Assembly: GCA_031414955.1 (NCBI GenBank)
Contig: JANOQV010000230.1
Span: 1-64,000 of the forward strand
Origin: Pedosphaera sp.
GTDB taxonomy: Bacteria; Verrucomicrobiota; Verrucomicrobiia; Limisphaerales; SIBH01
DNA: 64,000 nt
Direction of reading: 5' to 3'
Each line of letters opens with the position of its first letter. Position 1 is the first letter of the stretch. Of this stretch, positions 17,800-49,457 are shown piece by piece. Below the pieces are notes generated by a model. That model was not told where the DNA came from. It saw only the letters and a list, made by a program, of their open reading frames with translations, and made no database searches. Both the position numbers and the translations under genes were made by a program.

Positions 17800-17875
<76 letters not shown>

Positions 17876-42861: not shown

Positions 42862-44550
42862 TTAGCCCATCACATCGAGCATCGCGATCATGTCAGCCCA
42901 GTCGTTCTCGCTCGCGTTCGATTCCTTGAAGTAGGTGTTCTGATACGAACTCGGCGTGGTGCCGCGATAATCAAAATTCGGAGGCGTGATGTTCCGCTGC
43001 ACCTTGTAAGCGTTGCCGCCGCTGTCGTTCGGGAAATGGTTTTCCGCCCAGTCGCCGCCAATGTCCTCGTTGGCGGCGTAGTGGTTGTTCGCCGGCGTGC
43101 CGCCCGGCCCCGCGCCACCGTTCACACGCAACTGCGCCGCGAACGAATCCGATCCGACCGCGCCGGATTTTAGCGCGAGAATCGAGCCAAAATGCTGCGC
43201 CCACGGGTTGATCGCGTTCATGTTGATGCTGGGCCGGCCCCGCCAGGGCTGGTCGGAAGTAAAACCGATCCGGTAGTTGTGCGTGGACGAACTGCGGCTG
43301 CCGTTGCCGCGGTTCCGCACGGTGCAGAGGTAGCGCACCTCGACGCCCTGCGCCGTCACCCCGATGAAGGTGAGGTTGAACGCCGCATCGCTCTGCGGCG
43401 AACTGCTGAACATGGTGGCGAGTTCTGTGTACTCCGACGGGGTGAGAATAATTTTGTGGAGCGGCGCGACGCCGGTGTAAGCCGTGTTGTCCACCTGGTA
43501 GAGCGCGTTCACGCTGAAACTGTTCCGATCCATCACGGTCACACCGTCGGTGTTCACGGCGGGGCGCGGCCAGGTGTTGGTCTGGTTCGAGTCGTCCACG
43601 GCTTCGACGTAAAATTCCACGATGGCCTGGTTCGCCTGCGGCGGAATGCTCGCGGCCCACAGGCCGTCGCCTGCCGCGCCGTCGCTGTGCCCGCCGTCGT
43701 CAAACATCGTCGCGCTGGTGAAGGCGGGCGGAGCGCCGTTGTTCACGCGCCAGAACAGCCGCACGGCATAGACGGGCGTCTCGTCAATGACGCGCGCGGA
43801 AATCACCACCGTGTTCGTGGACTGCGGAATAAGCGGCGCGTGCCCGACATCCACGACGAGCGCGGGAGCATCGCCCGAGGCCACGGAGTTGCCCACGCCG
43901 GGCGTGCCGTTGACCGTGGTGCTGGCGGCCCAGTTCTGGCCGCGATCATTCGGCAACGCCGCGTTGACCAGTTCGAGCGAGCGACCCAGACCGTCGGCGC
44001 GCGCGAGCCACGTCCAGCCCTGGCAGCAACCATCGACTAAGCCGCGCTGGCGGATGGCCCAGTCGCCTTCGTCGGCGTAGGTGAGATCATCAATGGTGTT
44101 CCCCGCCGCGTCCTCAAGCGTGAGACGGTCACGGCCGTTGCTCAGGGAGTTCTCAAAATTCGTGTAGGTGCCGGAGGCGACGTTGGTGGTGCGGACGGTG
44201 AGGAAGCCAGCGACGAAGTTTGTCACGCCCGGATACTTGGTGGTGAAGCTGTTCGAGTGGGCCGCCACCACAAGATAACCCGCGGTTTTGATGACGGCAT
44301 TGCTCGGAAACGTGAAGGCGATGCCCTTCGTAAAGCGCCAGCCGCCGAGGTTCACGTTCGTCGGCCCGGCGTTGTACATCTCCAGATACTCCTCGCGCGA
44401 ATTCTCGGACGAGGGGTGGAACATGATCTCGTTAATCAGGATGTTCTGAGCGCGCGCGGGCAGCAGCAGTGCCGCCAGCAGCGCGAGCAGCGCCAGGAGC
44501 CAATTCGCCGGCTTAAAGCTGAGATCAGTGCGGAAAGAGTCTGTTGCCAT
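42862..44550 (-). CDS. N-terminal part of the same CotH/lamin-tail protein (signal peptide, LTD, Ig-like domain, first half of CotH kinase), ending at an in-frame TAA
   Basis: Signal peptide; ILINEIMFHP LTD; VRNRGNGSR, Y...EDI and GNAYK CotH-like motifs. Confidence 0.8.
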   Translation of the reverse strand: MATDSFRTDLSFKPANWLLALLALLAALLLPARAQNILINEIMFHPSSENSREEYLEMYNAGPTNVNLGGWRFTKGIAFTFPSNAVIKTAGYLVVAAHSNSFTTKYPGVTNFVAGFLTVRTTNVASGTYTNFENSLSNGRDRLTLEDAAGNTIDDLTYADEGDWAIRQRGLVDGCCQGWTWLARADGLGRSLELVNAALPNDRGQNWAASTTVNGTPGVGNSVASGDAPALVVDVGHAPLIPQSTNTVVISARVIDETPVYAVRLFWRVNNGAPPAFTSATMFDDGGHSDGAAGDGLWAASIPPQANQAIVEFYVEAVDDSNQTNTWPRPAVNTDGVTVMDRNSFSVNALYQVDNTAYTGVAPLHKIILTPSEYTELATMFSSSPQSDAAFNLTFIGVTAQGVEVRYLCTVRNRGNGSRSSSTHNYRIGFTSDQPWRGRPSINMNAINPWAQHFGSILALKSGAVGSDSFAAQLRVNGGAGPGGTPANNHYAANEDIGGDWAENHFPNDSGGNAYKVQRNITPPNFDYRGTTPSSYQNTYFKESNASENDWADMIAMLDVMG

Positions 44551-44646
44551 AGGCTGTCAGGGTTTTGTTTCTGGACTGTCGCTCAACTGTAACCATTTGT
44601 CGAAGCGGCTCCGGGAGCGGGAGCCGCCTCGACGAGGAAACCAAGT

Positions 44647-47600
44647 TCAGGGCGCGATGGGCGTGACGACCTGATAGAACCGGAAGGGAAGTCCCGGGGT
44701 GTTGGTCACGTTGATCACCCGGTTGAAAACCGGTTCCAACGACACATCCTGCAACCGCAGCCACGATCCAGTGCTGAGAGAGTTGCGATACTGCACCGTG
44801 TAGCTCTTGTTCGAGATGGCCTGAAAGCTGAAGGTGTATTCACCGGCCGCCGATCCAAACGAGAAGAGCGCGAGCTTGCTGCCAAAGGATTGAGGGTCAG
44901 TCCCGGCGAGATACTCCTGGAGGTTGGTCAGACCGTCGTTGTCATCATCGTCGCCCGCGTCGTTCACGAGCTTGTCCGTGCCATTCGCATCTTCCCAACT
45001 GTCCGGCATCCCGTCGCCGTCGGTGTCCGTGACCACGGGACTCACCACGGTCCAGGCATCGGAAACGGTGGCGCTGTTGGTGCCCTGCCAGAAGCCGGCG
45101 GAATTCTTGCCGATGACCGACACGGTGTAGGTGCCGTTGGAAAGGCCGGACAGGGAGATGGGCACGGCGTTGGAGAACAAAGTGGCGGTAATGAGGAAGT
45201 CATTCGTCAGCGAAACTTCCCCGCTCCACGGGCCGTTGTTCAACTTCCACTTGTAGGCATACATGCCGGGACCGGCGACCTTGAGCATGGCCGAAGTGCT
45301 GGTCGTGATGGAGGGCGGCTCGCCCGAGATGGAAGCGCCACCGGGCACGAGCGCGCCACGATCCAGTCCGTTGGGGCCGGTGCCGATGGCGGGCGAACCC
45401 GGCAGCAAGGCGAGATTGCTCTTGATGTTCAAGTGCGTAATCCCGGTCTGCCAGTTGACGAACATCGGATTGTTGGTCGAGTTGCCGCCGAAGGTCATGT
45501 TCGTGCCCTGGATGATGTTGTCGTTCGCGGTCATGAACATGGTGCCGTTGGTGAAGACGATGAAGGGCGTGGTGCTGTGCAAGTCCCAGAGAATGTTGCC
45601 GTTCATGACGATGCCGCGCCCGCCGGGCACGCCGCGATGCGGCTCGCCGAACTGCACGTAAGCCGCGCGCGTGGCCGAGAACTGGTTGGTCTCGATGGTC
45701 ACGACCGTGTTGTTCTCAAAGACCGCCGAACCCATGTCCTTCAACAGCATGGCGTGATCGCAGTTGTAGAAAATGTTGCGCACCACCACGAGTTCCGATG
45801 TGCCGCTGCCCTCCCCGGTGGAGACGGCGTTGGCCGTGCTGGAGCGCACCGCGTCCTGATGCACGTTCAGGAAGATGTTGCCCTCGATGTGCGCGTCGGT
45901 GGAATCCAAATCCATGCAGTCGTCCACGGCGGCCAGAAACACATTGTCGATGAACTGCACGATGGCGCCGGGACGGTTGCCACCGGTGAAATCAACACTG
46001 TCGCTATAGCCGGTCGGTGCTCCGAAAATGTTGCCCTTGATCAGAGCGTAACCGTTCGCCGGCATGCTGCTGAAGTGGACCGGTTCGATGGTCTCCCCGC
46101 CAGGCACGTAGGAGTCGAGCAGCGTCAACGAACTGCCCACGCAGTCAACCAACTGATCCACGGTGTTGGTCCACCAGAGGCTCCGCAGGTAAGCCGCCGT
46201 GTTATCGATGTCGATGTTCTTGCCCAAAATGCTGTCGAGGTCCGCGTAAGCAATGCGATGCGTGGAGCCGCCGCCCGTAAGGTTGATGCCGCCCCAACTC
46301 GTGGCACCGGTATTCAGACCGAAAAGCATGCGGCACTCCGGCGTGCCCTCGGCGAGGAGCAGACCATTGACCGTGAGGGAGAAGCCTTGGTTGAACAGCA
46401 CCTGCGCGCACGGCTCGATGGTGAGAGTGGTTCCGACCGTCACGGTGACGGAACTGGTCACAATGATGGTGGTGCCCGCCGCCCAGATCGTGTTCACGGA
46501 AATCTGGCCGCCGACATAGATGACCGGAGCCTGACGCTGGCCGCTGGCCATGTTGGAGACGCGCGACAGCGCCACGTAGTTGGTGTGCTGCACGCGGTAA
46601 TAATACTTCTGCCCAGGGATGGCCGACTCATCGACGTGATTGGTCGCCTCGGCCGGAAGCTGGGCGATGACCGCCCAGTTCACCGCGTCGGTGGAGCGAT
46701 GCACCAGCACACCCTCTTCGTTCTGCGAATCGTCCGTCCACTTCACGACCGGCGCGTTGGTGCCGGAGGAAATCACGGCCACGGCCAAGGGCGGCATCGG
46801 GATGCCGCCGAGCGGATAGGTGATGCCCATCTTCGCGCCGTCGCGTCCGCCGGTCAGCGCGGGCGAACCGGCTTGCAGGCGGTAATCACGCGCCGCCGGA
46901 TTCACGAAGAGCGGATCAACATTGATGTTGCCGTCGCCCGGCCAGTTGGTGTTTCCGAAGATGTTGTAGTCGGCGAACAACTGGCTGCCGTTGGCCAGGC
47001 CGATGGCCGCGATATTGTTCCACACGATGTTGTTGTAGGAATTGGTGGTGATGCCGCCGCCGGTCGGCGAGGCCGGATTGACCTTGTTGTAGTTGGTCAA
47101 GCCGGAGTCGTTCCCGACAATGGTGCAGTTGCGCACGCTCACATCGCAGAGCGACTTGGACATCACTCCGGCGTTGCAGGCGTAGATCAAACAGTTGCTC
47201 ACGATAATGCCGTGGGAAGAGCCGCCGTCGCCCACGGACACACCCTTGTCGAACGGAAAATCCCACATGATGCAGTTCTCGATGCGCGTGTCGGTGGAGC
47301 CGGGAAGGACGCCGGGGCCAATGTCCACGGCGTCAGCATTGCCGCGGTTGCCGTGGCGATAGGTGCAGTTGCGCGTGTATGATCCGGGCTGCGCGGCATC
47401 GAAATCCAGCGCGTCGCCTTCCAGCAGTTCGAACATGGATTGTTCGACCTGGATGACGCCGTCCCGCACCAGACATTCCCAATAGGAATAAATATGGGCG
47501 CGACGCACCTCGAAGAGGCTGGCGAAGCTGGACATCATGATGGGCCGGCCGGTCGTACCCGCGCCCGCGCCGGGATCAAAGTCATGAATCGCGGTGTCCT

Positions 47601-48870
47601 CGATCAACCCATAAGCCCCGGTGGTGGCGTTCACCTGCGTGCGGGCGATGTCGGCGAAATGAAGTTCCAAGGTGGAGTTCGTGCCCGTGGCCGAGAGCGG
47701 CCCCCAGGTGCCGCTCGAAGTCACGTCGATGGTGAAAAAGACATTCTGCTCGAACGTCCCGTGGGCATAAATCCGCCCGCCGCTCTGCGTCACGATCGAC
47801 GCACCCGGATTCACCAACACCACCGCCCCATTGGCCACCTCCAGAGTCACGTTCGTGGGCACGATCACACTGCCGGTCACATGCAGGATGGTACCCGGAT
47901 TCGAGGCCAGCACGCTGGCCCCCAACGTCCCGCTGATGGTGGTCCGTGAGGTCTCGCGAATGATGTTCTGAATACGGTTGGAAAGAAGGTTGCCTGCGGA
48001 ATCCAGGGCCGCGATGAAAAAGCGGCTGTAGCCCGGAGCCAGCGCCACGGTGTTGGTCCAGGTTCCGGTGGCCGGATTGAAACTGGATTCATTCCCATTG
48101 ATCGTCACCCGCGTCGCCCCGGCGATGGTGTTCGAGCCCGAGAGAGTGACCGAGCTGTCCGTGGTGAGCGCATAAATCCCGTTGTTGGGAATGGCCGCTC
48201 CATTCGTCGGCGCGCTCACGGAGAGATCCGGCACCAGGATTAAATCAGAACTATTCAACGTGCCGTTCAATCCCAGGATGGCCAGCGTATGGTCACCAAG
48301 ATCCAGTCGTGAACCGATGGCGCCAAGATCCCACGTCACCGCCGGCAGGCCGCTGGAGCCGAGGGAGGATTCGTGATTGGCGGTCGCCAGCGCCGTGTTG
48401 GTCGGTTCATTGCCCGCCGCGCCGGGCGCATTCGTGCGGCAAAGTTCCACGCCATCGAGATAAGCCACGAAACCGTCGTCCCAATCCATCCGCAGCAACA
48501 AGTGCAGATTCGTATCGAAGCTGCTGTCGACCGTGAACACATGGCGCATATAGAGCGTGCGATACGAGTTCTGCATGTCATTCAGGATCGTCTTGCAGTT
48601 ATTCGTCTCCGCCGCCGTGTCGGCGGAATAACCAATGCCGCCCGGCCCGGTCAGCCATTGCCCGCCCAGCGACGCATCGGAGCTAGTTTGCCAGCCGAGG
48701 ACCGGCGCATTAGTCCCCTTGTGATAACGCCACACATCACCTCGGTTCACCACGGGAGTGGGCGCGGTCGGCGGTGTCCCCACCTGAACGGTGAGATGCT
48801 GGCCGTGGGCCGAGATCAATCCAAGAACGCCGGCCAAAGCCGGCAACGTCAGACGTGCGATTCGAAACAT
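44647..48870 (-). CDS. Large secreted protein with two right-handed parallel beta-helix regions, an Fn3-like domain, a galactose-binding-like module, DxDxDG repeats and an RFYQV tail
   Basis: Signal peptide at MFRIARL; GDALDFD, DAVDIG, DKGVSVGD and DDCMDLD beta-helix motifs; WTDDSQNEEG..V.RS Fn3; DPLFVN...DYRLQAGSPA. The ORF-track start (49008) lies in the tRNA-like repeat. Confidence 0.85.
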   Translation of the reverse strand: MFRIARLTLPALAGVLGLISAHGQHLTVQVGTPPTAPTPVVNRGDVWRYHKGTNAPVLGWQTSSDASLGGQWLTGPGGIGYSADTAAETNNCKTILNDMQNSYRTLYMRHVFTVDSSFDTNLHLLLRMDWDDGFVAYLDGVELCRTNAPGAAGNEPTNTALATANHESSLGSSGLPAVTWDLGAIGSRLDLGDHTLAILGLNGTLNSSDLILVPDLSVSAPTNGAAIPNNGIYALTTDSSVTLSGSNTIAGATRVTINGNESSFNPATGTWTNTVALAPGYSRFFIAALDSAGNLLSNRIQNIIRETSRTTISGTLGASVLASNPGTILHVTGSVIVPTNVTLEVANGAVVLVNPGASIVTQSGGRIYAHGTFEQNVFFTIDVTSSGTWGPLSATGTNSTLELHFADIARTQVNATTGAYGLIEDTAIHDFDPGAGAGTTGRPIMMSSFASLFEVRRAHIYSYWECLVRDGVIQVEQSMFELLEGDALDFDAAQPGSYTRNCTYRHGNRGNADAVDIGPGVLPGSTDTRIENCIMWDFPFDKGVSVGDGGSSHGIIVSNCLIYACNAGVMSKSLCDVSVRNCTIVGNDSGLTNYNKVNPASPTGGGITTNSYNNIVWNNIAAIGLANGSQLFADYNIFGNTNWPGDGNINVDPLFVNPAARDYRLQAGSPALTGGRDGAKMGITYPLGGIPMPPLAVAVISSGTNAPVVKWTDDSQNEEGVLVHRSTDAVNWAVIAQLPAEATNHVDESAIPGQKYYYRVQHTNYVALSRVSNMASGQRQAPVIYVGGQISVNTIWAAGTTIIVTSSVTVTVGTTLTIEPCAQVLFNQGFSLTVNGLLLAEGTPECRMLFGLNTGATSWGGINLTGGGSTHRIAYADLDSILGKNIDIDNTAAYLRSLWWTNTVDQLVDCVGSSLTLLDSYVPGGETIEPVHFSSMPANGYALIKGNIFGAPTGYSDSVDFTGGNRPGAIVQFIDNVFLAAVDDCMDLDSTDAHIEGNIFLNVHQDAVRSSTANAVSTGEGSGTSELVVVRNIFYNCDHAMLLKDMGSAVFENNTVVTIETNQFSATRAAYVQFGEPHRGVPGGRGIVMNGNILWDLHSTTPFIVFTNGTMFMTANDNIIQGTNMTFGGNSTNNPMFVNWQTGITHLNIKSNLALLPGSPAIGTGPNGLDRGALVPGGASISGEPPSITTSTSAMLKVAGPGMYAYKWKLNNGPWSGEVSLTNDFLITATLFSNAVPISLSGLSNGTYTVSVIGKNSAGFWQGTNSATVSDAWTVVSPVVTDTDGDGMPDSWEDANGTDKLVNDAGDDDDNDGLTNLQEYLAGTDPQSFGSKLALFSFGSAAGEYTFSFQAISNKSYTVQYRNSLSTGSWLRLQDVSLEPVFNRVINVTNTPGLPFRFYQVVTPIAP

Positions 48871-48974
48871 AGAATGGCGGATTGTGGCACAACTCACGAG
48901 CACTGACAATCGCGCATCCACGAATGAATGAACTGTCACACGGCGGAAGCTGGCGGAGGTCCGGCGCAAGAAAA

Positions 48975-49034
48975 TGGTGGGTTGGCAGGGACTCGAACCC
49001 TGGACCAACCCCGAAAAGGTTCGGGGCTGCTCTA
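48975..49034 (-). repeat. Partial copy of tRNA-Lys(TTT) (3' two-thirds) with substituted anticodon arm
   Basis: 48975-49008 is identical to tRNA 49309-49342 (34 bp) and 49027-49034 to 49358-49365. The intervening 15 nt are replaced by an 18-nt hairpin CCCCGAA-CCTT-TTCGGGG. The 5' acceptor strand is absent. Confidence 0.9.
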
Positions 49035-49295
49035 ACCATCCACCGCCTCAGCGCGCTGTTGAAGCAGGAAGATGGCGAGTTGTGGGTTTTTCTTGCGCTT
49101 GAGTTCACGCTCCACGGTACGGGCCTCTGACAAACTCGCGGTCTCCCAGGAGACGACCAATTCAAGATTCTGACCCAACCGCGCCGTGGTGTGGGTTTGT
49201 CCGCGGCGATGTTCCTCCAACCGGCGCGCGAGGTCGCTCGTCGAGCCGATGTAGTGCCGGCCGGAATCGCCGCGCAAAATATAGACCCAGGCCAT
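49032..49295 (-). CDS. Stand-alone GIY-YIG nuclease family protein (UPF0213/YhbQ-like)
   Basis: WVYIL......HYIGST.DL.RRL.EH..G...T and A...ERELK: GIY-YIG motifs with Tyr, Arg, His and Glu retained; 87 aa. Confidence 0.9.
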   Translation of the reverse strand: MAWVYILRGDSGRHYIGSTSDLARRLEEHRRGQTHTTARLGQNLELVVSWETASLSEARTVERELKRKKNPQLAIFLLQQRAEAVDG

Positions 49296-49308
49296 TTGCT
49301 GGAAAAAG

Positions 49309-49384
49309 TGGTGGGTTGGCAGGGACTCGAACCCTGGACCAATGCCTTAAAAGGGCACTGCTCTACCAACTGAGCTACCAACCC
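49309..49384 (-). tRNA. tRNA-Lys (anticodon TTT)
   Basis: Reverse complement GGGTTGGTAGCTCAGTTGGTAGAGCAGTGCC-CTTTTAA-GGCATTGGTCCAGGGTTCGAGTCCCTGCCAACCCACCA: 76 nt with CCA. Confidence 0.97.
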
Positions 49385-49399
49385 ATCCGAGGGCCGCGG

Positions 49400-49428
49400 A
49401 AGCTAATCGAGAGGTTTTGGGGTCGCAA
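49400..49428 (-). promoter_or_regulatory. Sigma70-like promoter of tRNA-Lys(TTT)
   Basis: TTGCGA-N17-TAGCTT on the minus strand, 15 nt upstream of the tRNA (same offset as for the other tRNA-Lys). Confidence 0.55.
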
Positions 49429-49457
49429 GAGATATTCCCGGCGCGAATCACGCGCCA

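Follow-up and report, generated by a model that had tools for sequence, protein, structure and literature searches.

Integrative elements that target tRNA genes carry integrases, and the enzyme of the REP/RAYT and IS200/IS605 systems is an HUH tyrosine transposase. SsnA, a GIY-YIG protein of 94 aa, binds its oriented palindromic repeat in the ssDNA form only, and the cut that it makes lies a few nucleotides upstream of the repeat; in the available text of the report the authors raise an IS-like origin for Ssn, and the accompanying peer-review file describes SLX1-like proteins as a sparsely characterised sister clade of Ssn (PMC11893778). SegB of phages T4/T6 is a free-standing GIY-YIG homing endonuclease which, according to the available text, makes double-strand breaks at a 27-bp site with a T-loop motif (PMC2330249). 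For Slx1-like proteins, the available text of PMC1564403 does not describe the layout reported here.

In the window analysed here, the whole stretch of 64,000 nucleotides from Pedosphaera sp., a tRNA-Lys(UUU) gene is followed on the minus strand by a 13-nt gap, a GIY-YIG ORF, a D-arm match, a palindrome and a partial copy of the tRNA (Table 1). The original prediction, made from the window alone, knew of no characterised system with such a layout, and our literature searches, with most subscription papers beyond their reach, returned no description of a tRNA, a GIY-YIG gene and a palindrome arranged in this way. The layout is real and recurrent and was not found in print, and the kind of system, a nuclease plus its cognate palindrome, is already known from Ssn.

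Ssn (CDD cd10448) is described in the available text as a single-domain GIY-YIG protein of about 90 aa with a cognate oriented palindrome that lies beside the gene and is dispersed in the genome, in clade-specific pairs (PMC11893778), and the cassette is alike in each of these respects. Its protein has 87 aa and one domain, and the geometry of its junctions is compatible with Ssn-type ssDNA nicking 5' of the repeat. However, the published SRM pattern matched 0 of the 166 palindromes found here and none in the window element, and three NTS-flanked proteins from viral contigs, taken as stand-ins for SsnA, were 23%–28% identical and fell on a separate branch (SH-aLRT 99, from a short alignment and a quick tree). 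The main text of the Ssn report, as available, makes no mention of tRNA (PMC11893778), whereas the window gene is bound to tRNA genes, and the cassette has one palindrome inside a partial tRNA copy whereas Ssn has repeats on both sides. Judged by these sequence comparisons the cassette appears to be a relative of Ssn and not a member.

SegB resembles the cassette in that a GIY-YIG gene lies beside tRNA genes and cleavage drives segmental duplication via short homology (PMC2330249, PMC13096335); the available text on SegB does not describe a palindrome-plugged tRNA copy. Whereas SegB is phage-borne, the window family gave no match in 50,697 phage records or in viral contigs, and the window protein, a single domain, showed neither an extra DNA-binding domain nor a homing family match (TIGR01453, 20.7 bits vs a cut-off of 56; PHROG E 0.009). 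Integrative elements in tRNA 3' ends are, like the cassette with its 34-bp direct repeat, flanked by an intact and a partial tRNA, but the available text gives them a size of about 9–23 kb (bioRxiv 10.1101/2022.07.05.498093), whereas the cassette spans 334 bp, encodes no integrase, has a palindrome at its junction and is accompanied by mirror units upstream. REP/RAYT and IS200/IS605, as these are presented in the available text of PMC11893778, likewise combine one small nuclease gene with dispersed repeats marked by hairpins; unlike them, the cassette has a GIY-YIG hydrolase and duplications of tRNA halves. The best solved relatives of the 87-aa protein in sequence and fold searches were UPF0213, UvrC and Slx1. 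UPF0213 and bacterial SLX1-like proteins (PDB 1zg2, 1ywl) gave the best matches of both kinds, but their actinobacterial relatives had no tRNA nearby (4 loci) and fell on another branch, and the PDB entries give no function.

Layout of the locus and its nuclease

Table 1. Positions of the cassette and its host tRNA gene in the window.
Feature	Coordinates	Strand	Basis or remark
Upstream region of host tRNA gene	49385..49442	-	Outside mobile unit; ~90% identity to same-genus cassette-free genomes
Intact host tRNA-Lys(UUU), target	49309..49384	-	ARAGORN; Rfam 75 bits
13-nt leader without Shine-Dalgarno core	49296..49308	-	Sequence
87-aa single-domain GIY-YIG gene, UPF0213/SLX1-like fold	49032..49295	-	Pfam E 3.4e-12; model
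D-arm remnant, short-homology side of junction	49027..49037	-	Overlaps nuclease stop codon
18-nt GC-rich palindrome, 4-nt loop, replaces tRNA positions 28-42	49009..49026	-	Sequence
Exact copy of tRNA positions 43-76 through CCA (long-homology side, target duplication)	48975..49008	-	34/34 identity

The predicted order of tRNA, nuclease and plugged partial copy is real: its coordinates, the 34/34 and 8/8 identities and a repeat period of 334 bp were all re-derived. The 8/8 match to the D-arm of tRNA-Lys lies at 49027–49034, and its first three nucleotides are the stop codon of the nuclease. Replacement of the anticodon arm only, as originally described, is right in that a segment has been swapped for the palindrome but not in its extent, since the pair that closes the anticodon stem (positions 27 and 43) is retained and the replacement is limited to positions 28–42. 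ARAGORN miscalls the partial copy as tRNA-Glu. On the left flank of the palindrome 11 nt match the CAU tRNA of the genome (GCGA arm) vs 8 nt for the cognate tRNA-Lys, which hints at a possible relic of an earlier target. The 76 nt of the intact tRNA-Lys(UUU) are identical in 7 same-genus genomes, and the region upstream of it is likely to be its promoter.

Misassembly, which would have undone the prediction, was ruled out by a 360-nt contig identical to 48979–49338, present in two samples of one study, one of them perhaps the sample from which the window came, at a depth like that of its flanks (12.4 vs 15.4/9.8; 7.3 vs 7.2/9.0), together with the recurrence of the layout. The GIY-YIG ORF is the only ORF of the 334-bp unit; Pfam matches at the element were to GIY-YIG and T5orf172 only, and no HUH tyrosine transposase was found in the unit. 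The neighbouring genes encode an SNF2 helicase and a large TSP3-repeat protein.

Several other features of the window and its genome were recorded. Beyond the cassette, two large secreted-looking proteins are encoded on the minus strand (42862–48870), the first with a TSP3-type repeat and a promoter-like site at 48881–48909. A tRNA-Lys(CUU) at 17800–17875 has the same anticodon-arm flanks as the occupied tRNA; the sole small GIY-YIG gene and the palindrome copies of the genome are not located there. Seven atypical tRNA genes, several with unusual arms, are clustered on one contig of this genome (G000:C221:370-2479) and may form a cryptic tRNA array or belong to a mobile region.

The 87-aa protein matched PF01541 (GIY-YIG) at 46.9 bits vs a cut-off of 22.6, and its predicted structure was one confident domain (pLDDT 89) in which, as in the Pfam search, no DNA-binding domain was seen. 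Residues of catalytic type are intact (Y5, Y15, G17, R25, H29, E62), and the domain score above the curated cut-off, the fold and these residues place the protein in the GIY-YIG superfamily. Among 56 family genes Y5, G17, H29 and E62 were invariant, Y15 and R25 were present in 55/56, and the median dN/dS was 0.22 over 291 unsaturated pairs. The nuclease gene is under purifying selection, yet it is frequently broken: 74 of the 90 gene copies in the fetched loci were intact, 8 were shortened by stops or shifts, 2 lacked a start and 6 ran on without a stop as far as the sequence was read, several of these at contig ends. It is the only small GIY-YIG ORF in the genome of the window, the other three Pfam matches lying in frames of 355–645 aa, and relatives in the ESM Atlas bear automatic GIY-YIG names only. 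The missing Shine-Dalgarno sequence noted in the window proved to be general, as the window leader has no core and an SD-like core at -16 to -4 was present in 0/56 family genes, in keeping with a tRNA transcript that is translated from a short leader. We infer that the gene is transcribed from the tRNA promoter and translated from this very short leader.

Recurrence, target tRNA genes and junctions

The unit recurs across Verrucomicrobiota. For the genome scan the homologue set was the best 80 of 202 confirmed loci, and in 62 of these 80 a tRNA ended within 450 nt upstream of the gene. In the 59 of the 62 which were long enough to evaluate, a copy of the 3' half of the locus's own tRNA was found downstream in 56, directly preceded by a strict palindrome in 51. 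The other 18 of the best 80 loci comprised 9 distant loci with a tRNA downstream, 4 distant loci without a tRNA and 5 without a call. Several of the 9 reversed loci are labelled Saccharibacteria or Levybacteria, and they often have a related palindrome in a 5' partial copy upstream. At L057, L059, L060, L063, L066 and L072 the order was a palindrome in a 5' partial tRNA copy, the gene and the intact tRNA, and at L072 the leader of the element seems to be derived from a tRNA other than the present target.

An even sample of 201 class genomes contained 28 with a homologue at E<=1e-12, and the 29 loci fetched from it (two repeats) included 26 with an upstream tRNA and 19 with a copy. A reverse search of metagenomes with a motif pattern that included the flanks (80 loci examined of 120 returned) gave 96 matches, which were 36 upstream units, 35 units downstream of the gene, 5 downstream units without a gene and 20 matches without a called tRNA, most of the last showing tRNA-half sequence.

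The presence of the cassette is patchy. Neither gene nor palindrome was carried by any of 23 tRNA-Lys loci of close relatives (0/23), 9 of which came from 11 same-genus genomes, and in 7 of these 9 cassette-free loci the tRNA was identical to that of the carrier. As synteny does not extend to the flanking genes, the tRNA and the region upstream of it serve to define the empty site. Seven tandem pairs were found, the members of which differ by 3–37 nt. The original prediction had looked to homologues for a consistent place beside tRNA genes, tandem copies and a substituted hairpin that recurs, and to relatives for the empty site; each of these is observed, and its proposal of a minimal selfish module without an integrase is likewise supported.

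Target labels cluster on the tree with at least three changes between Lys and CAU tRNAs (bootstrap not settled). Further targets of the window clade are Arg(UCU) and Arg(CCU), and all targets seen for the window nuclease clade carry U at position 36. We also tried a strict target motif made up of the D-stem 3' hexamer, 15 nt and a 5-nt start of the variable loop. This fitted the four main targets among the 54 ARAGORN rows of the genome, with Arg(UCU), Arg(CCU) and one CAU target as exceptions, and the motif is therefore a tendency.

The junctions are fixed. In 88 of 94 tRNA copies, a set of which part had been chosen by a pattern containing the flanks, the replaced interval was 28–42; this holds over Lys, CAU and Arg tRNAs, and bases 27 and 43 usually follow the target. 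Identity to the own tRNA over 30 nt was found in 58/88 family copies. Gene-less palindrome units were present upstream in 33/60 loci (from the best 80 of 202) and consist of the tRNA 5' half, the palindrome, a few bases of the 3' half and about 40 nt of upstream-type DNA, with a period of 81–97 nt in 62/66. Short homology in the upstream units was 6–8 nt in 33/44 Lys and 15/22 CAU units, and in the downstream copies, where it lies on the opposite side, it was 6–8 nt in 42/56 Lys copies with a mode of 9 in 32 CAU copies. Strand by strand, both junctions fall about 7 nt 5' of the palindrome, in loci which are related (many are Chthoniobacterales) and not independent events, the metagenome set having been selected by a flank-containing pattern. 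Selection for a binding motif and for the stop codon could account for the persistence of the 7-nt homologies.

The 28–42 interval might also be produced by target-directed homing with rescue, the first option of the original prediction, whereby the nuclease would cut the native anticodon arm at both stem bases, repair would copy the donor palindrome and only duplications that keep a tRNA would survive. The replacement of 28–42 over three kinds of tRNA with usually target-like 27/43, the U at position 36 and a fold nearest to UPF0213 and the structure-specific Slx1 agree with this, as does the precedent of SegB, which in the available texts cuts tRNA genes and drives segmental amplification (PMC2330249, PMC13096335). 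We nevertheless consider this main rival unlikely. In other clades a different interval is replaced and the anticodon loop is kept, dispersed palindrome copies lie in longer stems no more often than in shuffles (12 vs 9.0 of 66, p 0.15), and the protein has no DNA-binding domain. Moreover, the tRNA-Lys of the carrier is the same as in 7 non-carriers, which, assuming that the target lies within the tRNA, leaves it unprotected and makes simple cutting of the native allele hard to hold.

The partial copies were also examined as possible RNAs, since the copy in the window can fold like a tRNA and a minihelix is possible. A host-useful module at the RNA level would be in keeping with purifying selection on the gene and its dependence on the tRNA transcript (no SD in 56/56 genes); in such a module the copy, processed as a tRNA mimic or decoy, would shield the mRNA or draw off an attack that cleaves tRNA, and the nuclease would serve in defence or repair. 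However, CCA was encoded in 25/103 copies, changes in the T-stem were 9 broken pairs and 4 wobbles with 0 two-sided changes, the acceptor strand was paired in 46/103 copies vs 33–53 in shuffled controls, and a hairpin fold outdid the minihelix (-27.3 vs -21.9 kcal/mol). The CCA-ended tRNA mimic which had been offered as one option is contradicted by these values, and a mimic or minihelix was rejected as a family trait. A defence role, also raised at the outset, found no evidence in the defence libraries, where PADLOC and PHROG (E 0.009) matches were marginal, and the patchy presence and broken copies likewise argue against usefulness to the host; we regard this explanation as improbable. A search for a known RNA family returned only sub-threshold mascRNA-like matches to the T-arm and acceptor of the partial copy.

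The palindrome as a dispersed repeat

Three more copies of the palindrome occur elsewhere in the genome of the window. Five carrier genomes contained 42, 42, 11, 4 and 3 copies with 0 for the reversed control, and the palindrome was present in 54/201 class genomes at 0–90 copies per genome, the control being found once each in 2 genomes. A loose pattern applied to 301 phylum genomes returned mostly noise. Copies were located within ORFs, in REP-like hairpins, at sites resembling terminators and immediately 3' of the CCA of other tRNAs. The palindrome has taken the place, in frame, of 12 nt in one gene and of 6 nt in another (vs 15 and 7 relatives), which we take to encode an acetyl-CoA synthetase and a family-B polymerase respectively, and comparison with orthologues at non-tRNA sites gave replacements of 15 nt at two sites and 18–19 nt at one. 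The palindrome arrives by replacement of a segment and not by plain insertion. Three of six empty-site searches found no orthologue, and apart from those in arrays and tRNA units the dispersed copies showed no target-site duplications. The idea that the palindrome enters longer stems already present was rejected on the comparison with shuffles given above, although several copies lie in REP-like hairpins by eye.

Palindromes are clade-specific. Distant nucleases in the same genomes lie at fMet, Asn (twice), Pro and Thr tRNAs, where palindrome and junction differ from one nuclease to the next, and the fMet and Asn types keep the anticodon loop or lose only its 5' side. The palindrome is a genome-wide repeat and not a rebuilt anticodon arm. 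The earlier suggestion that the hairpin re-arms the copy so that it is immune or acts as a decoy has to be abandoned, as the repeat also occurs within genes, in other stem-loop repeats and after further tRNAs, and the tRNA segment that is replaced differs in related clades.

Individual copies were inspected in their surroundings. One (G000:C11:11150; L125:1051) is in frame at the end of a short gene-like stretch that presumably is a fragment of a UbiD-type decarboxylase, and another (G000:C53:5793; L126:994) forms the apex of a REP-like hairpin beside a 185-aa ORF (L126:1070-1627) which we take to be IS200/RAYT-like. At L136:1501, L178:348 and L533:781 the palindrome lies one base past the terminal CCA of other tRNAs or an apparent tmRNA end, and the bases that follow are nearly the same. 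In G333 (L185, L186, L193, L195 and L196) palindromes lie within heptamer-like tandem-repeat arrays and are themselves tandem at a spacing of 40–47 nt. Nested palindromes upstream of the gene at L072 and upstream of the tRNA at L483 suggest that insertion took place more than once at one site. At L099, close to a related tRNA, a loose hairpin was dismissed, as it is inside a long ORF.

The palindrome is present in each of the 7 genomes that have a homologue at E<1e-30. In family f94 the palindrome was present in 7/9 genomes and the gene in 0/9, in family f81 these values were 3/5 and 0/5, and a GIY-YIG match was found in 0/20 loci sampled from palindrome-bearing genomes without a close gene. 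Since most palindrome genomes are without a close gene, the copies there may be relics, the gene may be unassembled, or another enzyme may move the palindrome. In the last case an enzyme such as a transposase of the IS200/RAYT type would spread the palindrome as a REP-like repeat, and the tRNA duplications would carry the nuclease gene along as a passenger; the many genomes without a close gene, the 0/20 sampled loci and the one copy adjoining the presumed IS200/RAYT-like ORF are in line with this. We think it very improbable, however, as the sequence of the palindrome tracks the nuclease clade within the same genomes, the catalytic residues are conserved and the gene nearly always adjoins a palindrome copy.

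Proposed mobility of the cassette and its meaning

On our analysis the locus is probably, though by no means certainly, a selfish cassette of about 300–330 bp residing in tRNA genes, the nuclease of which would nick ssDNA about 7 nt 5' of its own palindrome while host repair uses the tRNA halves as homology. The nuclease gene would be read from the tRNA promoter and translated from the very short leader, and the protein would bind its own palindrome as a hairpin in ssDNA. A nick about 7 nt 5' of the palindrome, on either strand and as made by SsnA at its repeat, would leave an end made up of about 7 nt, the palindrome and the long tRNA half. The long half could then pair with a tRNA gene, with the 5' end joined without homology, or the product might arise by recombination of a small circle. 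One strand would give rise to gene-bearing downstream units and tandem arrays and the other to gene-less upstream units of about 90 bp, and survival would be limited to products that keep one intact tRNA. The palindrome alone would also be copied elsewhere, replacing 6–19 nt. A recombinase would not be needed, as the joining would be carried out by host repair.

Nicking beside the cognate palindrome is suggested by junctions that match Ssn chemistry, and at only 23%–28% identity to Ssn-type proteins that chemistry can be applied to the cassette as an analogy. The exact replacement of 28–42 with target-derived flanks at the Arg loci and the 15-nt replacements at two non-tRNA sites fit a target-directed cut as well or better, and the palindrome genomes without a close gene (f94, f81) weigh against a nuclease that nicks its own palindrome. 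The wider claim, that autonomous mobile elements of about 300 bp are moved by a GIY-YIG nickase alone, while the tRNA halves serve host repair as homology arms and the palindrome is also written into further sites, some of them in frame in housekeeping genes, is put forward tentatively, at somewhat less than even chances.

The proposed selfish cassette provides a testable role for a large set of tiny bacterial GIY-YIG proteins known by domain name only, and both the substrate (the cognate palindrome) and the position of the nick can be predicted from genome junctions alone. The layout explains one source of false tRNA calls, here the tRNA-Glu reported by ARAGORN. It also suggests that an element may move with neither transposase nor integrase and that a repeat can overwrite short segments of host genes. 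Should mobility by the nuclease alone be shown, the cassette would be a new class of minimal mobile element. If the proposed mechanism is true, many unannotated small GIY-YIG genes would gain a role, and the many parallel clades, which differ in palindrome and tRNA junction, would be a natural library of sequence-specific ssDNA nickases.
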